A DNA stretch of 64,000 nt from Candidatus Woesearchaeota archaeon. GTDB taxonomy: Archaea; Nanobdellota; Nanobdellia; Woesearchaeales; GW2011-AR9. How positions within the stretch are numbered: position 1 is the stretch's first letter; every line of letters begins with the position of its first letter. The translations under genes and the position numbers were made by a program. The notes below the pieces were generated by a model, which saw nothing but the letters and a program-made list of their open reading frames with translations, was not told the origin of the DNA and did no database searches. The DNA lies in the NCBI GenBank assembly GCA_018696595.1, contig JABHQW010000008.1, positions 320,001 through 384,000 of the forward strand, given 5' to 3'. Shown here piece after piece: positions 18,954 through 60,455 of this stretch.

Positions 18954-19279
18954 ATAGGTAGGGCGGAATAAGCCGCCTTTTGTCAAACCCAAACAATTAA
19001 CAATGTAATTGCGATGGTTTGTTTTAGCATTCTACTAAGCGTTGAACCAACTTGCACTGGTTAGTATTCGCCGTTTCATCGCTCCCATACAACATAGTCA
19101 TGGGGTTAACTCATTGCTTTCTCAAGCAACTTCGCCACTATCATCCCGATGTATGGACGTGTCGTTTCTGAGCCATGGACAGCCATTTCTGACTCTCACT
19201 TCCGTGAGTAACCTTTCATAGTGGGCGGACTTTCCTAAGCGAATAAATTCACCTTCTGCTAAATACCGCTCCTACCTAT
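18954..19279 (-). ncRNA. rnpB: RNase P RNA (archaeal, type A-like)
   Basis: P1 ataggtaggagcgg/ccgccctacctat; CR-I aggaaagtccgcccac; cagaaacgacacg; gatgaaacggc; agtgcaag; gcttagtagaatgc; CR-V acaaaaggcggcttat; BRE-TATA about 25 nt upstream. Confidence 0.93.
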
Positions 19280-23109: not shown

Positions 23110-24168
23110 ATGAAAGAAATAATTTTAAATTGGTTAGGGACAATTCCTTATGGTAATTATTTACAAAATAAATACCTTTTTGCTATTTTGATTTTGGTAA
23201 CGTTTACAATTGGTGCTAAACTATTGTTGTTTATTTTTGAGAAATATTTCCAAAGATGGGCCAAGAAAACTAAAACTGAAATTGATGATATTATTTTTGA
23301 CAGAACTAAAAAGCCAGCATTTTATTTCTTGTTAGCAATTGGGTTGAAGTTAGCAATATTACATTTAGAAGTTAATGGGATCGTAAATTCTTTAGTTAAT
23401 ACACTTATGGCAATCGTGTTTGTATTTATTATTGCTAAAGTTGTTGATACAGTTATTGATATCTGGGGAGAAACTTTTGCTAAGAAAACTAAAAGTAAGA
23501 TTGATGACGTTTTATTACCTTTATTTCATAAATTTACAAAAGTATTATTTGTGATCATTGCAATTCTATGGGTCTTAAAAATATGGGGCATTGATATTGG
23601 CCCATATTTGGCAGGGGCAGGAATTTTGGGAATAGTTATTGGGTTTGCTTTACAAGATTCTCTAAAAAACATTCTTGGTGGAATCACTTTACTTCTAGAC
23701 AAAACTTTTGAGATTGGGGATAAAGTTAAGATTGAATCTGGTAAAGTGGGAACAATTCATGATATTGGCTTAAGAAGTACTAAATTAATTACTTATGATA
23801 ATGAAGTGATTTACATCCCTAATGGATATTTAGCAAACTCTCAAGTACAGAATTATACCAGACCAAATCCAAAAGTTCGTGTAGGTATAGATTTTGGTGT
23901 TGAGTACGGCAGCGATGTTGCTAAAGTAACTGAATTAATTGTGGGGACTTTGAAAGGAACGGGTGGTCTTTTATCTGATCCTCTTCCAGCTGTACACTTT
24001 TTGTCTATGGGTGATTTTGCTTTAAACTTTAAAGCATATTTCTGGGTAGAGAAATGGGGCGATGCTTACAGTAAGAAGTTGGAAGTTACTGAAGCGATTT
24101 ATAATGCTTTGAACAAAGCTAAAATTGGAATACCTTTCCCAACACAAACTATTGAGCTAAAGAAGTAA
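23110..24168 (+). CDS. mscS: Small-conductance mechanosensitive channel
   Basis: GIVIGFALQDSLKNILGG, FEIGDKV, G.IHDIGLRST, IPN..LAN. Confidence 0.92.
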   Translation: MKEIILNWLGTIPYGNYLQNKYLFAILILVTFTIGAKLLLFIFEKYFQRWAKKTKTEIDDIIFDRTKKPAFYFLLAIGLKLAILHLEVNGIVNSLVNTLMAIVFVFIIAKVVDTVIDIWGETFAKKTKSKIDDVLLPLFHKFTKVLFVIIAILWVLKIWGIDIGPYLAGAGILGIVIGFALQDSLKNILGGITLLLDKTFEIGDKVKIESGKVGTIHDIGLRSTKLITYDNEVIYIPNGYLANSQVQNYTRPNPKVRVGIDFGVEYGSDVAKVTELIVGTLKGTGGLLSDPLPAVHFLSMGDFALNFKAYFWVEKWGDAYSKKLEVTEAIYNALNKAKIGIPFPTQTIELKK

Positions 24169-24179
24169 GTTCCTTAGTA

Positions 24180-24252
24180 AAAGCACTACCACCAATGGAG
24201 GCGCATTTTGGAGTGTAACGACAAAATCTCGGGCGCCGTGCCGTAGTGCTTT
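24180..24252 (+). repeat. Hairpin element family, copy E1
   Basis: aaagcactac/gtagtgcttt outer stem; core caccaatggaggcgcattttg...caaaatctcgggcgccgtg. Confidence 0.8.
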
Positions 24253-24306
24253 TAGTTGCTTTAAATAAGCAAATATTTTTATATTCTCTTTCTTTTTATT
24301 CTTATT

Positions 24307-24498
24307 ATGGACATATTATCACCAATCGGAATTATTGTAATCGCTTTGTTAGTAGTTGTTTCTGCTAGCTTCCTTTCTAAAATTCTCAAGGTGGTATTCT
24401 ATTTATTATTGATAGCTTTCGTATTGGTTGTGTTGTTTGGTATCTCTTACAACGATTTGTTGGGTTGGGCTTATGGGATTGTGCTGTGGGCGTTTTAA
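24307..24498 (+). CDS. Small hydrophobic membrane protein
   Basis: 63 aa with two to three TM segments. Confidence 0.65.
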   Translation: MDILSPIGIIVIALLVVVSASFLSKILKVVFYLLLIAFVLVVLFGISYNDLLGWAYGIVLWAF

Positions 24499-24549
24499 AT
24501 ATTCTCTAAACAAGTAAAACTTATAAAGAATTAAGTTCCTAGTATTTTT

Positions 24550-25506
24550 ATGACTTCATCTATTTGGACAGAAAAGTACAGACCGCAAACTTTTGAAGAA
24601 GTTAAGGGTCAGAATGAGATTGTAAATAAAATTAAAGCATTTGTTTCTACAGGAAGTATGCCTCATTTATTATTTTCCGGGCCAGCAGGTGTAGGAAAAA
24701 CAACTCTCTCTTTAGTAATTGCTAAACAACTGTTCGGAGAATCTTGGAGACAAAACACTTTAGAATTAAATGCTTCTGATGAAAGAGGAATTGATGTTAT
24801 CAGAGTTAAAGTTAAAGATTTTGCTCGAACAAAAGCAATCGGCGATGTACCTTTCAAATTGATTTATTTAGATGAGTCAGATGCTTTAACAAAAGAAGCA
24901 CAGCAAGCTCTAAGAAGAACCATGGAGAACTATACTAGAACTTGCAGATTTATTTTGTCATGTAATTATTCTTCAAAGATTATTGATCCAATTCAATCAA
25001 GGTGTGCAGTGTTTAGATTTAGACCTCTTGCAGAAGAAGACATTTATCAGATGATTGATAAGTTATCTACAGATGAAGGCTTAACTGTTTCTGAAGAGGC
25101 TAAGAAGGCTTTATTTGAGGTATCTAATGGCGATTGTCGAAGACTTGAGAATGTAATGCAATCTTGTGCTGTAATCAAAAAAGATTTGGATGGAGAATTA
25201 GTTTATTCTATGGCTTCTGTCGCTAAACCAAAAGAGGTTAAAGAATTGTTAGAAGTTGCTGCTAAAGGGGATTTCATTTCTTCACGTAAGAAACTTCTTG
25301 ACTTAATGTTAAATTATGGTTTGTCTGGCTTAGATGTGATTAAACAGATTCAAAGAGAAATTTGGAACTTAGAATTGTTTGATGAGAAGAAAGTTGAGTT
25401 GATTGACAAATGTGGAGAAGTAGAGTTTCGAATGTCTGAAGGATCAGATGAGTATGTGCAATTAGAAGCTTTTCTGGCGTTCGTTGTTATGGTTGGTAGT
25501 AAGTAG
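24550..25506 (+). CDS. rfcS: Replication factor C small subunit
   Basis: WTEKYRP, GPAGVGKTT, LELNASDERGI, LDESDALT, SRC. Confidence 0.96.
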   Translation: MTSSIWTEKYRPQTFEEVKGQNEIVNKIKAFVSTGSMPHLLFSGPAGVGKTTLSLVIAKQLFGESWRQNTLELNASDERGIDVIRVKVKDFARTKAIGDVPFKLIYLDESDALTKEAQQALRRTMENYTRTCRFILSCNYSSKIIDPIQSRCAVFRFRPLAEEDIYQMIDKLSTDEGLTVSEEAKKALFEVSNGDCRRLENVMQSCAVIKKDLDGELVYSMASVAKPKEVKELLEVAAKGDFISSRKKLLDLMLNYGLSGLDVIKQIQREIWNLELFDEKKVELIDKCGEVEFRMSEGSDEYVQLEAFLAFVVMVGSK

Positions 25507-25536
25507 TTTTATATATTATTTTAATTTCTTTATCAT

Positions 25537-26724
25537 ATGAAGTTTGATAACCTTACTAAAATAAAACTAGTGTATTTCTTCAAATCATTATTCTTCTTTT
25601 CGCCAATTATCACTCTCTTTTATTTCTCTCGTGGCTTAGATACGTTTCAAGTAGTTTCTTTAGAAGCCATCTTAATAATTTCTGTGCTACTAATGGAAGT
25701 TCCAACTGGAATTATTGCAGATAAGATTGGCAGAAAGTATTCTTTATCAATCCTAACTTTCTTTTATGTAATAGGAAACATTTGGACCATTTATGCTCAC
25801 TCTTATCGAGAATTTATTTTTATTGAGATCCTGTTTGGAATTGGAATCGCTTTTGGTTCTGGAGCAATAGAAGCGTTAGTTTATGATTCTCTTAAGTATC
25901 AAAAGAAAGAACGAACCATGGGCAAGGTCTGGGGCTCAATTAATTCTTATGCTTTAGTTGCGGGCGTTTTTGCGGTTACGTTAGGCGGATATTTGGCTAG
26001 GTCGCATGATTCAGATTCCTTTGTTCTATTACTTTGGCTTTATACGATCGGAGCAGTAATTGCTTTTATAATTTCATTATTTGTTACAGAAAGGAAACAC
26101 GAGAAAGATATTGTTAGAAAAAGTCCGCTATTATTGTTTAAAGAATCAACAGTTCATATTCTTGAAAATAAATCTTTGAGAAGAATAATTCTTCTTTCTG
26201 TGTTTACGCTTCCATTTACACATGTAATCTTATTTTTGTTTCAACCATATTTTTTAATGGCCAATGTCAATAATGCTTTATTTGGGGTGGCTATGGCTAT
26301 TGGGTCTGTTTTAGGTTTTTTCTTAATGAAATATGCTTACAAAATTGAAAGAAGGTTTGGAGTTAGCAAAACAATGTTTGTTGCTACTATCTTGCCCGGA
26401 TTATTATATTTAGTGATGGCTTTCTTTATTGGTCCTTGGTTATCTTTTACTTGGTACGTCTTACAAAAAGGTTTTATGAAGATTAGATGGCCTTTATTTT
26501 CACAGTATCAAAATACACATATTAAGAGTTACAATCGAGCCACCGTTTTGTCAGTAATTTCAATGATTGTTTCTTTATACTTAGGAATCATGCGTTTAGT
26601 TCTTGGAAAGATTGCTAATTACGATTTGATTACTTCATTTGTTGTTATGGGCGTAATTATTGTTGTTGGTGCAATCGCTTTCAGAATTAATGAAGGGCAC
26701 GTTAATGGTTCTGAGAGTGGATAA
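25537..26724 (+). CDS. MFS transporter
   Basis: EVPTGIIADKIGRKYS (motif A), SGAIEALVYDSL, RATVLS; about 12 TM. Confidence 0.9.
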   Translation: MKFDNLTKIKLVYFFKSLFFFSPIITLFYFSRGLDTFQVVSLEAILIISVLLMEVPTGIIADKIGRKYSLSILTFFYVIGNIWTIYAHSYREFIFIEILFGIGIAFGSGAIEALVYDSLKYQKKERTMGKVWGSINSYALVAGVFAVTLGGYLARSHDSDSFVLLLWLYTIGAVIAFIISLFVTERKHEKDIVRKSPLLLFKESTVHILENKSLRRIILLSVFTLPFTHVILFLFQPYFLMANVNNALFGVAMAIGSVLGFFLMKYAYKIERRFGVSKTMFVATILPGLLYLVMAFFIGPWLSFTWYVLQKGFMKIRWPLFSQYQNTHIKSYNRATVLSVISMIVSLYLGIMRLVLGKIANYDLITSFVVMGVIIVVGAIAFRINEGHVNGSESG

Positions 26725-26756
26725 AATATATAAATGGAAAAGATAGGGATTATAAA

Positions 26757-27545
26757 ATGACAGAAAAAATATACTTCCACAATTCAAAGAAGCAAAAGTT
26801 ATGTGGGGTCCTAGAAGAACCTAAGCAAAGTAAAGAAGAAATTGTTATTCTTGTTCATGGATATAGTTCTAATAAAGAAGGTAAAACAACATCAGACATG
26901 GCTAAAGAATTGACGACAAGAGGGATGAATAGTTTTAGAATTGATTTGGATGGTTGTGGCGAATCAGAAGGATACTTCGCTGAACAGACAGTAACAAGCA
27001 TGGCAGACGATATTGTTTCTGCGATTAAGTTTGTTGAAAGTTTAGGTTACGAGAATATTGATTTAATGGGGGCTAGTGGCGGTGCAATCTCAAGTATGGT
27101 TGCGGTTTTACAATGTCCCCAAATTAGAAAACTAGCATTAAAATCTCCAACATTTGATTATGTTGAACAAAGAAGAAAAAGTTATGGTGAAGAAAAAATA
27201 AAAAAATGGAAAGAGAAAGGCCATTTAATGATTGAAAAAAGTAGAGGCACTTTAAGGGTTGATTACTCCTTCTTTGAAGATGCACACAATCATATTATGT
27301 ATGATAAAGTTAAAAATATTAGTTGTCCTGTTTTGATGATTCATGGTGATGCTGATGAAGTAGTTGATATTAAACAGAGTAAAAAGGCAGTAAATAATTT
27401 TCCTAATGTTAAATTAATTATTTTTCATGGGGCTAATCATAATTTGGGTTTAGATGGAGATCGGTCTCTATCAAATAAACTATTTGCAGATTGGTTGGAA
27501 GGAAAAGAATTAATTGTTTCTGAACCACATTACTTTTACAATTAA
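26757..27545 (+). CDS. Alpha/beta-fold hydrolase
   Basis: VHG, G.GES.G, GASGG nucleophile elbow, HGDADEVV, GANH. Confidence 0.88.
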   Translation: MTEKIYFHNSKKQKLCGVLEEPKQSKEEIVILVHGYSSNKEGKTTSDMAKELTTRGMNSFRIDLDGCGESEGYFAEQTVTSMADDIVSAIKFVESLGYENIDLMGASGGAISSMVAVLQCPQIRKLALKSPTFDYVEQRRKSYGEEKIKKWKEKGHLMIEKSRGTLRVDYSFFEDAHNHIMYDKVKNISCPVLMIHGDADEVVDIKQSKKAVNNFPNVKLIIFHGANHNLGLDGDRSLSNKLFADWLEGKELIVSEPHYFYN

Positions 27546-27591
27546 AACCTGGATAGAAAAAATAAATTAAAAAGAAAAAAATAAAAAAACT

Positions 27592-28488
27592 TTATTCAAC
27601 ACTCTCTTTGATTCTTAGAGTTTCCTGAATAATGTCTCTGTATTTGTAAGAAATTGTTAACCCTAACTGCTTAGTTGCTAAAGTTCCTTCTGGTAACGCT
27701 TCTTTTAACTTACAGATTATTTCTGCTTCGCCGTTAATTAAACGAGCTTCTCCCAACTTGCCACCTTGTTTACATTCCCAATTAATATCATCAATAGCGT
27801 AAGCCACTCTTTCCTGAACTCCAAAGTCGTCTCCTGGCTTAGTTACTTTACCACTGCCAACATTACTTACTTTAATCTTCAAAGCCATAATACCTTTACC
27901 AGCAGTACTTTCTTCCACACTAGTAATTGTAATTGGTGCACCAGAAACAAAATAAGTTTTTGCTCCATCTATTGTACAAACACGGTCGTCAGTTAAATCT
28001 TCTTTTAAACAAACTTCCGGAACGATCAAATAAGTTTCATAATTGTAATCAAAGTTTGCAAACCATTCTCTGTCAATAGCTCCATTAACTGGTTGACTAT
28101 ATTTTGCATCTGAAGAAAATGTTAAAGTTTCTTCTCCACCGATAGTTAAAAGTTCAGAAACAGTTTCAATTGTTCCAGCATTTTTTAATGCTAGTGAAGG
28201 AATTCCTGTGAAGTCCATAGAAGGTCCTTTTAATTCCACAGTAATGTCTCCTGGTTGAATCTCATATTCTCCTTTGTTGTTCAGAGTAACTTCAATAGGA
28301 ATTGTTTCTGCATCAAAAATACTATAAACTCCGTCTTCTACAACTCCGAATGGTTCGAAGGTAGCCATTATTCCTTGTGTTCCGCCAATGAATGCTCCAC
28401 TACCTGCTGTTGTAGTTGTGTCTTCACCATCACATCCTACTAATAGAATTGCACTAATCAATAAAATTGCTAAAATTATTCGTTTCAT
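27592..28488 (-). CDS. Putative lipoprotein, paralog of 423-1295
   Basis: Canonical lipobox LVGC; VCL, SGAPI.IT.VEE, NVGSG.V, C...L....EIIC.L. Confidence 0.75.
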   Translation of the reverse strand: MKRIILAILLISAILLVGCDGEDTTTTAGSGAFIGGTQGIMATFEPFGVVEDGVYSIFDAETIPIEVTLNNKGEYEIQPGDITVELKGPSMDFTGIPSLALKNAGTIETVSELLTIGGEETLTFSSDAKYSQPVNGAIDREWFANFDYNYETYLIVPEVCLKEDLTDDRVCTIDGAKTYFVSGAPITITSVEESTAGKGIMALKIKVSNVGSGKVTKPGDDFGVQERVAYAIDDINWECKQGGKLGEARLINGEAEIICKLKEALPEGTLATKQLGLTISYKYRDIIQETLRIKESVE

Positions 28489-28582
28489 CTTATCTTACCT
28501 CTTTTAATTATAATTATATTGGAAAAGAATATTGACATATATAAAGTTTACTCATTGTCTGTGTAGTCAAGTCTTCTGTGTT

Positions 28583-28708
28583 AGCAAAAGCATTACCGCC
28601 AATGGAGGCACATTTTGTTCATTTTTTATTTAATGAAAAGCACGAAACAACGTGAAGTGGCTAAAATTAATGGACAAAATCTTAGGTGCCGTGCGTAATG
28701 CTTTTGCT
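28583..28708 (+). repeat. Hairpin element family, copy E2 (expanded loop)
   Basis: 14-bp perfect outer stem agcaaaagcattac/gtaatgcttttgct; core cgccaatggaggcacattttg...caaaatcttaggtgccgtg. Confidence 0.8.
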
Positions 28709-28769
28709 CAATTAATTAATATTTAATAGAATTTTAACTTAATGATGCAAACAGCAATTCCATAGAAAT

Positions 28770-29738
28770 TCATTGTCCTAGTGGTGAAGCAACAATTTTA
28801 AGCGGTTGAGTATAAGAGTCAATGTAAGAATAATCAAATTTTACTTGTAAAATTGTTTCATAAGCGTTACTATTGCCAATGTTGTTAGAAGTACAAACAA
28901 TCTTGCCCTGGTTATTTGTTAAACGAACTTTATGATTTAATGGTTTACAGTTTAATGGTGATCCATCATTTAGTGAAACTTCAAACTCAACCACATCTAA
29001 ATCTTTATATTCTAAAGATGCGCCACCACAATTTTGAATGTTTGCCCCATAATCTAAAACTCGGCCACCGCCGTTATTAACAACATTAATTTCAAAGATG
29101 GCTTTATCTCCAATCATATCTACGCCGACATAACTTACTCCTACTGGTGCTCCTTGGCCGCCGCCCATTCCTACATCGTGTGGGATACAAGCTTTCTGTT
29201 CAGAAGTGATTTGATAAAATAAAGGATCAATACAAACTTGCGGATTCGCAGTTGTAGTGTAACGATAACAAGTTAAAAAGTTTAATACTGGATTATATTC
29301 AAAAACATCTGTTGGTAAGTTTACGTTTGGTGAGGTGAACTGAATCACATTAGTTGCTCCTAATGTATTATATACATTTTTTCCTTCCAAAACACCCATG
29401 TTTGCAGCACAAGGGATACTATTTGTAAAACTTCCACTGATTATACTTTTATCAAATCCCGTAACTTGAATATAACAATCAGGAATTTCAATATCATCAT
29501 TTCCTTTATTGTGAACTTCAACCATTGCAATTAATTCATTATCATCATAAATTAAAGCAGGGGGTTGATTTTGAATAATTTGAATTTCTACTCCTTGTGT
29601 TCCAGTTTGAACTGCTGTTAATGCTGCAGCAGTATCTTGTGGTTTTTCTCCTGCTGGAATCGCGCCACCACAAGAACTAAGAAATAAAGCTAGAATCACT
29701 AGTACTGAACATAACGTTAAACTCACACTCTTTTTCAT
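28770..29738 (-). CDS. Putative lipoprotein, paralog of 423-1295
   Basis: True start is the ATG at 29738 (MKKSVSLTLC...LFLSSC, lipobox LSSC); VCIDP, GGQGAPVGV, NNGGGRV; BRE-TATA on the - strand at 29761-29777. Confidence 0.78.
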   Translation of the reverse strand: MKKSVSLTLCSVLVILALFLSSCGGAIPAGEKPQDTAAALTAVQTGTQGVEIQIIQNQPPALIYDDNELIAMVEVHNKGNDDIEIPDCYIQVTGFDKSIISGSFTNSIPCAANMGVLEGKNVYNTLGATNVIQFTSPNVNLPTDVFEYNPVLNFLTCYRYTTTANPQVCIDPLFYQITSEQKACIPHDVGMGGGQGAPVGVSYVGVDMIGDKAIFEINVVNNGGGRVLDYGANIQNCGGASLEYKDLDVVEFEVSLNDGSPLNCKPLNHKVRLTNNQGKIVCTSNNIGNSNAYETILQVKFDYSYIDSYTQPLKIVASPLGQ

Positions 29739-29799
29739 AATTCTAAATAAAAGAAATTGATTATATAAGCTTTTCGCTGTCTTGAACTGAAATTTTAAT

Positions 29800-29979
29800 G
29801 GACTACGTTCGGAATAGAAGACATTTGTATACTGCGTGCCGGCGCGTGGATTTTGTGAGTAGCGCCAAATGAGGCACATTTTTTGACTAAAAGTCAAAAA
29901 ATCTCGGGTGCCGTGTCCTACTCGCAAAATGCGCCTATTGCAGGCAGTATACAAAATAGTGTTATTCCGAACGTAGCCC
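29800..29979. repeat. 180-nt nested near-palindrome: + strand copy E3 (29856-29924) inside the loop of - strand copy E4 (29823-29957), within a further outer stem
   Basis: Stems ggactacgttcggaata/tattccgaacgtagccc; tttgtatactgc/gcagtatacaaa; ggcgc/gcgcc; attttgtgagtag/ctactcgcaaaat; ggcac/gtgcc; attttttgact/agtcaaaaaat. Confidence 0.82.
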
Positions 29980-60382: not shown

Positions 60383-60455
60383 AGCCCCTGGTGAGAGTTG
60401 CACTCACGGTCTACTGCTTACGAGGCAGTCGCTATAGCTACTAAGCCACAGGGGC
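60383..60455 (-). tRNA. trnT: tRNA-Thr(CGT), non-canonical D and T loops
   Basis: GCCCCTG/CAGGGGC acceptor; ACTGC-CT-CGT-AA-GCAGT; GTGAG-TGCAACT-CTCAC; 73 nt. Confidence 0.9.

Follow-up and report, generated by a model that had tools for sequence, protein, structure and literature searches.

The window analysed here is a stretch of 64,000 nucleotides from contig JABHQW010000008.1 (positions 320,001 to 384,000) of a Candidatus Woesearchaeota archaeon, whose genome (G000) is 1.19 Mb in size, has a G+C content of 32% and is 97% complete; the genomes G001 and G002 belong to congeners. Between the genes of the window lie four hairpin elements, E1 to E4 (Table 1). The block that G000 holds at E1 in excess of its congeners runs from about 24169 to 24274, that is from the stop codon of the gene at 23110-24168 to the TATA box of the gene at 24307-24498. 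The two genes flanking E2 are both encoded on the strand opposite to it, and the E3/E4 composite, whose whole hairpin spans 29800-29979, is located between two TATA boxes. An initial annotation of the window had described the four elements as an intergenic hairpin family and had placed all copies outside open reading frames, with E3/E4 between these TATA boxes. This placement was borne out, and both TATA boxes are conserved at the empty site of a congener. E1 to E4 very probably belong, as old copies, to a superfamily of miniature inverted-repeat transposable elements (MITEs) that occurs in one family of the Woesearchaeota and is moved by an IS5-type transposase.

Table 1. Elements and element ends in the window (positions are those of the 64,000-nucleotide stretch).
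Feature	Coordinates	Strand	Description
E1	24180-24252	+	Simple copy: P1, 7-nt 5' bulge, P2 GGCGC/GCGCC, 5-nt 3' bulge, P3, 11-nt loop; 77.8 bits
E2	28583-28708	+	Copy with an apical module of about 44 nt (conserved CACGAAACAACGUGAAGUG); 79.3 bits
E2 shell, remnant of left terminal inverted repeat	28564-28573	+	GTAGTCAAGT, cf. GGTAATGTCAAGTTA of intact copies (comparison with full units of G021 and G118)
E3	29856-29924	+	Inner simple copy in the apical loop of the outer element E4; 83.7 bits at 29845-29935
E4	29823-29957	-	Outer shell in opposite orientation with degenerate core (CAATAG-GCGC ... GCGCC-GGCAC) and GTATAC boxes
E3/E4 composite, left outermost arm (terminal inverted repeat)	29800-29816	+	GGACTACGTTCGGAATA; variant of GGCTTCATCCGGAATA / TGGTCTGTCCAGAATA
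E3/E4 composite, right outermost arm	29963-29979	+	TATTCCGAACGTAGCCC

E1, E2 and E3 share the asymmetric core CCAAWNGAGGCRC ... GYGCC-GUGC with covarying stems, and the two conserved arm patterns of the initial annotation each match exactly three times in the window, compared with 0.5 and 0.3 matches expected by chance, which confirms these three copies as a shared hairpin family. All three fold into a long hairpin in which the same two bulges recur (minimum free energies of -28.9, -41.9 and -31.4 kcal/mol and z-scores of -3.2, -3.9 and -6.1 for E1, E2 and E3, respectively), in keeping with the stacked helices and fixed bulges that had been described. From the outside inwards the common architecture begins with the stem P1 and a 3-bp helix YGC/GUG, the middle pair of which is G·U. 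A 7-nt bulge CAAWNGA on the 5' strand precedes the 5-bp helix P2 (GGCRC/GYGCC), and a 3'-strand bulge of about 5 nt separates P2 from the AU-rich helix P3. The loop at the tip varies, and its length had been given correctly as 3 nt in E3, about 11 nt in E1 and more than 50 nt in E2. A second conserved module is found at the apex of E2 (28620-28680), where the small hairpin CACG-AAACAA-CGUG is followed by AAGUG; the same module occurs in the copies G000:C2:52950, C3:230579 and C4:31496 as well as in several copies of G002, and it may represent another nested element or an expansion domain.

The state of preservation differs between the copies of the window. The ends of E1 are decayed, although its interior is near-identical to the copy at G000:C5:36674-36761; E2 retains a remnant of its left end, the right-hand partner of which has decayed; and the outermost arms of E3/E4 are divergent but still complementary at 16 of their 17 bases. 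As had been proposed, an outer copy is present on the minus strand around E3, but a covariance model (R1, built from 19 copies) matches it at 29818-29961 with an E value of only 0.018, which marks it as degenerate. Homologous shells in G002, G016 and G018 score between 31 and 66 bits, and the corresponding outer layer of relatives is a canonical, full-scoring copy in the opposite orientation (55-66 bits).

The congeners demonstrate that these elements are insertions. E1, E2 and E3 are all missing from contiguous orthologous sites in G001, and E1 and E3 are missing in G002 as well. At the site of E1 the stop codon of the upstream gene is directly followed by the TATA box of the next gene in both congeners, whereas G000 has about 106 additional bases. 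At the site of E2 about 215 nt of G000 are absent from G001:C10 between the same two genes, while G002 carries a different composite copy there, which belongs to another subfamily, has the other orientation and is flanked by an 8-bp duplication, CTTAATGT. The conserved TATA boxes on either side of E3/E4 are about 19 nt apart in G001 and about 215 nt apart in G000, and the entire segment 29800-29979 is absent between them from both G001:C10 and G002:C87. The spacer in G002:C87 (L043, about 1530-1600) instead holds an unrelated palindrome of about 55 nt (ttttgagttatgagtactcataac...ctcaaaa), so that other small palindromic insertions evidently use the same spacer. Two further empty orthologous sites were found besides those of E1 to E3, and a strain-level comparison of the E2/E3 region returned identical sequences without polymorphism. 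The species was encountered in 66 blocks of public assemblies, among them GCA_018654495.1, JGI 3300038360, ENA ERZ4200980 and SRR398263. An old copy, C5:36674, is orthologous in G000 and G002; its core is canonical in G000 but deleted in G002, where (L208, G002:C61, about 2210-2290, compared with L006, 2001-2089) both outer arms and the final bases of the core persist and about 47 nt of the core are lost.

Another copy of G000, C7:4100, sits at one border of an inversion, the 209-aa gene beside it (L011, 2133-2785) being inverted in G000 with respect to G001:C70 and G002:C21/C78. The copy at G000:C3:292641 (L003, 10500-10700) separates the TATA box of a small gene from its start codon, whereas in G001 (end of C48) this gene starts about 24 nt after its TATA box; the mRNA of G000 should thus carry the hairpin in its 5' leader.

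A search of the whole genome with the model R1 identified 23 copies in G000, dispersed over seven contigs and in both orientations. Within the same Woesearchaeota family the core is present in 35 of 113 genomes, which represent 27 of 58 genera (E ≤ 1e-4, stricter filters). The family as a whole has roughly 300 copies, and R1 found none in 16 other families of the same order. The number of copies per genome across the family ranges from 0 to 31 at E ≤ 1e-4 and reaches 38 in G002 at the laxer threshold of E ≤ 0.01, whereas the G001 assembly, which is 84% complete, has none by either R1 or a search for the core motif; some of its contig ends coincide with element sites, yet overlapping contig ends revealed true empty sites. 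A loose pattern scan of the contigs of other genomes gave mostly chance matches, in bacteria. Bursts of near-identical copies are found within the single genomes G018, G021, G002, G015, G070, G118, G123 and G042. Contigs that end inside identical copies were seen in G070 (C1, C4, C13 and C14), in G042 (C11, C15 and C21) and many times in G002; repeats of this kind fragment metagenome-assembled genomes and can hide copies, which bears on the quality of such assemblies in the DPANN archaea. No Rfam family overlaps the elements of the window at the gathering score, nor even at E ≤ 5, and literature searches returned no description of such elements. The only two Rfam or ARAGORN matches in the window are an archaeal RNase P RNA (18957-19276, minus strand, 138.7 bits) and a tRNA-Thr(CGU) (60383-60455, minus strand).

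The limits of the mobile unit were taken from aligned fresh copies as the points at which identity stops. Five types of terminal inverted repeat were found in intact copies, namely TGGTCTGTCCAGAATA, GGCTTCATCCGGAATA, GGTAATGTCAAGTTA, GGCACTGTAGAAACC and AGGTAATAGGTCTGC, and in one subfamily (G123 and G021) the terminal repeat coincides with the stem adjoining the core. Direct repeats of 8-9 bp flank more than 15 copies, among them CATTCAGC, GCAACAAA, CTTAATGT, TTTTTCTAC and TGTTTATAG as well as GGATTTCAC, ATTCTAAGG, CTTTTTGTA, CTTTATTAG and TTATAACTC, and an automatic scan recovered such duplications at 11 of 77 copies and at none in an offset control. Helix P3 of a copy at G018:C15:3379-3623 (L223) is interrupted by a MITE of another kind, which is about 125 nt long, has the ends GAGAAGTTTG/CAAACTTCTC and is flanked by a TA(TA) duplication. 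At least two families of MITEs, nested in one another, are present in these genomes.

A family-wide search for the end TGGTCTGTCCAGAAT led to a pair of ends 925 bp apart in G048. The element between them (G048:C1:51977-52901) and one of 921 bp in G070:C48 share with the E4-type shell both their ends and the subterminal GTATAC box. The single open reading frame of this insertion sequence (L235:509-1402 in G070) encodes a protein of 298 aa, which is split by a frameshift in G048. The protein matches DDE_Tnp_1 with 38 bits, above the cut-off, and the NCBIfam IS5 model with an E value of 1.8e-30 and 106 bits, which is below the equivalog cut-off of 140; its identity to annotated archaeal IS5 transposases is about 26%. 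The insertion sequence of about 920 bp does not itself contain the core. Close homologues of the transposase occur in only four of the 113 genomes, with none in G000, G001 or G002, and G000 has no long repeats resembling insertion sequences. The lack of a transposase in the window, which the initial annotation had remarked on, therefore extends to the genome as far as one for this element is concerned, and together with the decayed ends it identifies the copies of the window as relics.

One asymmetric core of about 45 nt is common to all subfamilies, irrespective of their end type. Across genera the core is 84-89% identical between pairs of copies, compared with about 42% for the arms. In an alignment of 82 copies from 12 genomes, 94.9% of cells pair, as opposed to 67% in shuffled and at most 49% in slid controls, and 18 of the 20 pairs show changes on both sides. 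P2 occurs as GGCGC, GGCAC, GGGGC, GGGAC, GGUAC and AGCAC, each time with the exact complement, and P3 occurs as AUUUU, ACGAG, AUGGC and AUAAAUUU, again always with the complement; the covariation of these two inner helices is genuine. The compensatory changes noted at first, ggcgc/gcgcc versus ggcac/gtgcc and cactac/gtagtg versus cattac/gtaatg, are accordingly real, but those in the outer stem have to be read differently. The two ends on which a transposase acts must be alike in sequence, and covariation of the outer stem therefore requires no RNA. Much of it reflects stems that are, or descend from, terminal inverted repeats and subterminal boxes differing between MITE subfamilies, and not compensation of the kind seen in RNA. 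An origin of the stems by copying of the target upon each insertion was rejected, as the stem types recur at unrelated sites in different genera.

Both bulges and one G·U pair are fixed across the copies, and G·U occurs 36 times against 16 for A·C when two fixed wobble positions are set aside; these two contribute another 106 G·U and no A·C. The conserved bulges, the fixed G·U and the excess of G·U over A·C indicate that it is the fold of the CCAAWNGAGGC strand that is kept, while gene conversion from arm to arm would erase the asymmetry of the core. Judged from its sequence, one strand of the core thus seems to fold, and the core may act as a folded single strand that serves the element itself.

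Mobility, ends, duplications, the autonomous partner and the conservation and pairing of the core are observed; the mechanism proposed to connect them is the following. The elements are gene-less near-palindromes of 75-180 nt, on which the DDE transposase of the IS5-family insertion sequence of about 920 bp would act in trans by cut-and-paste, duplicating 8-9 bp of the target upon insertion. New copies would persist where they had landed between genes or in the AT-rich apical loop of an older copy, and repeated insertion into loops would give rise to onion-like nested hairpins, such as E3 inside E4 and possibly E2 with its extra apical module. The transposase has since disappeared from G000, where the copies have partly decayed ends. 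For the core within such elements a role as the nucleus of a DNA hairpin or cruciform is plausible, if short of even odds, with GC clamps around an easily melted AT centre joining the ends of an element of only 75-180 bp. A role at the level of RNA, for instance as a processing, stabilising or termination hairpin or as a protein-binding RNA, is put forward more tentatively, and for the remainder the core may have some other function or none.

Several observations do not sit easily with elements moved by an IS5-type transposase. Profile searches of G000 returned no match to PF01797 (Y1), PF01609 (DDE_Tnp_1), PF13610 (IS6) or PF07282 (TnpB), and none of these four matched in G002 either; PF13610 was not found in any of 24 genomes, and G018 and G021 have no DDE_Tnp_1 or TnpB match. 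G002, G018 and G021 thus show recent bursts without a match to DDE_Tnp_1 or TnpB, and the mover in these genomes must be unassembled, lost or different. By sequence the insertion sequence is tied only to the GTATAC/TGGTCTGTCC shell of the E4 type, and the other end types may be linked to it through the likeness of their ends (GG... and a 9-bp duplication). In the window itself the duplications are at best degenerate (AGAAGTAA versus ATAAGCAA at E1), and E2 and E3 have none. The orientation of copies with respect to co-directional neighbouring genes is random over all genomes (22 sense, 18 antisense), which argues against a cis-acting RNA role, although orientation alone is compatible with DNA and RNA alike. 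Finally, a DDE mechanism leaves the conservation of a strand-specific, asymmetric fold unexplained.

An alternative reading is that the core is a functional RNA module that resides on, or was domesticated from, the MITEs, for example a small ribozyme, a protein-binding RNA or a bidirectional terminator or processing hairpin; selection would then maintain the RNA while the element as such is mobile DNA. The unpaired nucleotides conserved between covarying helices, the fixed G·U and the excess of G·U over A·C do have the look of a structured RNA. In G000 the core of the old copy that also occurs in G002 is still canonical, but the orthologue in G002 simply lost the core. T-runs, which are present on both strands of the elements, could stop archaeal transcription from either side, and the co-directional copies of G000 alone comprise nine in sense and four in antisense orientation, although this trend disappears over all genomes. 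No promoter is evident inside the element and no Rfam family matches, both of which count against this explanation. The kink-turn recognised by L7Ae consists of a 3-nt bulge followed by tandem G·A/A·G pairs, and it was rejected because the core has no GA on the non-bulged strand (GYGCC-GUG) and hence no tandem G·A pairs. The archaeal bulge-helix-bulge splice motif, with two 3-nt bulges on opposite strands 4 bp apart, has the same topology but was likewise rejected, as the bulges of the core measure 7 nt and about 5 nt, are separated by 5 bp and have a conserved sequence (7-5-5 instead of 3-4-3). Readings as a SECIS-like element, an origin box or an H/ACA RNA were rejected on anatomy. An RNA module of this general kind is possible but doubtful, and the narrower suggestion that the core is a new structured RNA, either a small ribozyme or an RNA that a host protein binds, as its site or as a decoy, riding on IS5-type MITEs or domesticated from them, is rather unlikely; if true, it would explain why the core persists where the transposon ends have decayed and why shells with unrelated ends have it in common.

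The initial annotation was right to favour a non-autonomous mobile element over a cis-regulatory RNA of the neighbouring genes, but the mechanism that it preferred does not hold. A hairpin related to repetitive extragenic palindromic (REP) sequences and REPINs or derived from IS200/605, and moved as single-stranded DNA by a Y1 HUH transposase, could explain the hairpin shape, the conserved bulges and the strand-asymmetric fold. Such systems, however, have no terminal inverted repeats and produce no target-site duplication, both of which are present here, and the ends match those of an IS5-family element. They also need a Y1 transposase. Y1_Tnp genes do occur in some relatives (G016, G018 and G021), but their presence does not track that of the element, and PF01797 and TnpB were not found in G000 or in G002 with its 38 copies. 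The sole copy near a tnpA gene (G021:C34) is upstream of an unrelated gene for a secreted protein and not at the end of an insertion sequence. In favour of this mechanism, copies on the same contig tend to share their orientation, which in G000 goes beyond chance (simulation, p of about 0.014; seven of eight on C3, four of five on C6, and also on C2, C4, C7 and C8), and this bias has no relation to regional gene strand or GC skew. Taken together, this mechanism is highly improbable. The least probable of all is a fixed, non-mobile family of non-coding RNA genes. It would fit the strong covariation and the conserved core, but empty orthologous sites, target duplications, bursts of identical copies and copy numbers from 0 to 38 among relatives speak against it, and the empty sites and duplications contradict it outright.

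It could also be envisaged that the core hairpin is itself the mobile unit and is inserted by a structure-specific mechanism into the loops of palindromes and into intergenic DNA, the IS5 shells serving as landing places. The same core is found in shells with at least five different ends, the autonomous insertion sequence lacks it, nesting always takes place in the apical loop, and the copy at G000 C6:75303 has a direct repeat ATAGAAA(A/G)TAA beside the inner stem and no outer shell. On the other hand, fresh identical copies share the ends of the shell and the duplication lies outside those ends, and in the subfamily of G123 and G021 the terminal repeat is formed by the very stem that borders on the core. 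Nested copies are also the expected survivors in compact genomes in which loops are the only harmless targets. A mobile core is thus improbable, and the elements of the window very likely belong to mobile DNA as IS5-derived MITEs.

Among the known archaeal relatives of such elements are SM1-SM4 of Sulfolobus and the MITEs derived from insertion sequences in haloarchaea. Like other prokaryotic IS5-derived MITEs the elements described here are small, have no open reading frame, have ends identical to those of an autonomous insertion sequence and a duplication of fixed length, occur in intergenic bursts with a patchy distribution and are moved in trans. The features that define MITEs are present, with inverted-repeat ends, the duplication, bursts and presence or absence at orthologous sites, and an autonomous partner for the E4-type shell only; a matching transposase in the same genome is missing, which is usual for relic MITEs and is no defining feature. 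Unlike in other IS5-derived MITEs, the best conserved part is the centre and not the ends, several end types share a single asymmetric, structurally constrained core, and the elements are near-perfect palindromes that are repeatedly nested in each other's loops. The autonomous partner is reminiscent of the IS903 group of the IS5 family, which has a transposase of about 300 aa, ends starting with GGC and a 9-bp duplication. Here too an insertion sequence of about 920 bp encodes one DDE_Tnp_1 transposase of about 300 aa and has ends GG(C/T) and a duplication of 8-9 bp; its identity to annotated archaeal IS5 transposases is low, however, and its NCBIfam score lies below the equivalog cut-off.

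In behaviour the closest counterparts are the bacterial enterobacterial repetitive intergenic consensus (ERIC)/intergenic repeat unit (IRU) and Correia (NEMIS) elements, whose hairpins can act as RNA on neighbouring genes. They too are imperfect intergenic palindromes of 100-150 bp with a conserved centre and larger forms that arise through internal insertions, but they are from another domain of life, have other ends and another duplication (TA in Correia elements), and lack the fixed bulges and fixed G·U of the present core. REPIN/REP sequences with RAYT and IS200/605-derived elements are similar as short hairpin-forming repeats with strand-specific structure, yet all three of their defining points fail here. 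Integron attC sites, which form arrays of the same orientation, each bound a cassette and are conserved in the R''/R' boxes at the base of the stem, were rejected because the copies are dispersed in both orientations and their conserved part lies in the middle of the stem. The spacers that hold copies are divergent in 25 and convergent in seven cases.

The covariance model, the end types and the autonomous partner allow these repeats to be masked and annotated, and a class of calls of novel structured RNA in DPANN genomes is thereby explained as transposon biology. The family also shows how much apparent covariation of stems can stem from inverted-repeat ends and not from selection on RNA. The puzzle that remains is the conservation, from genus to genus, of a bulged and strand-specific hairpin core in DDE-type MITEs as short as these, and its answer could reveal either how ends are joined in elements far shorter than the persistence length of DNA or a new RNA motif.

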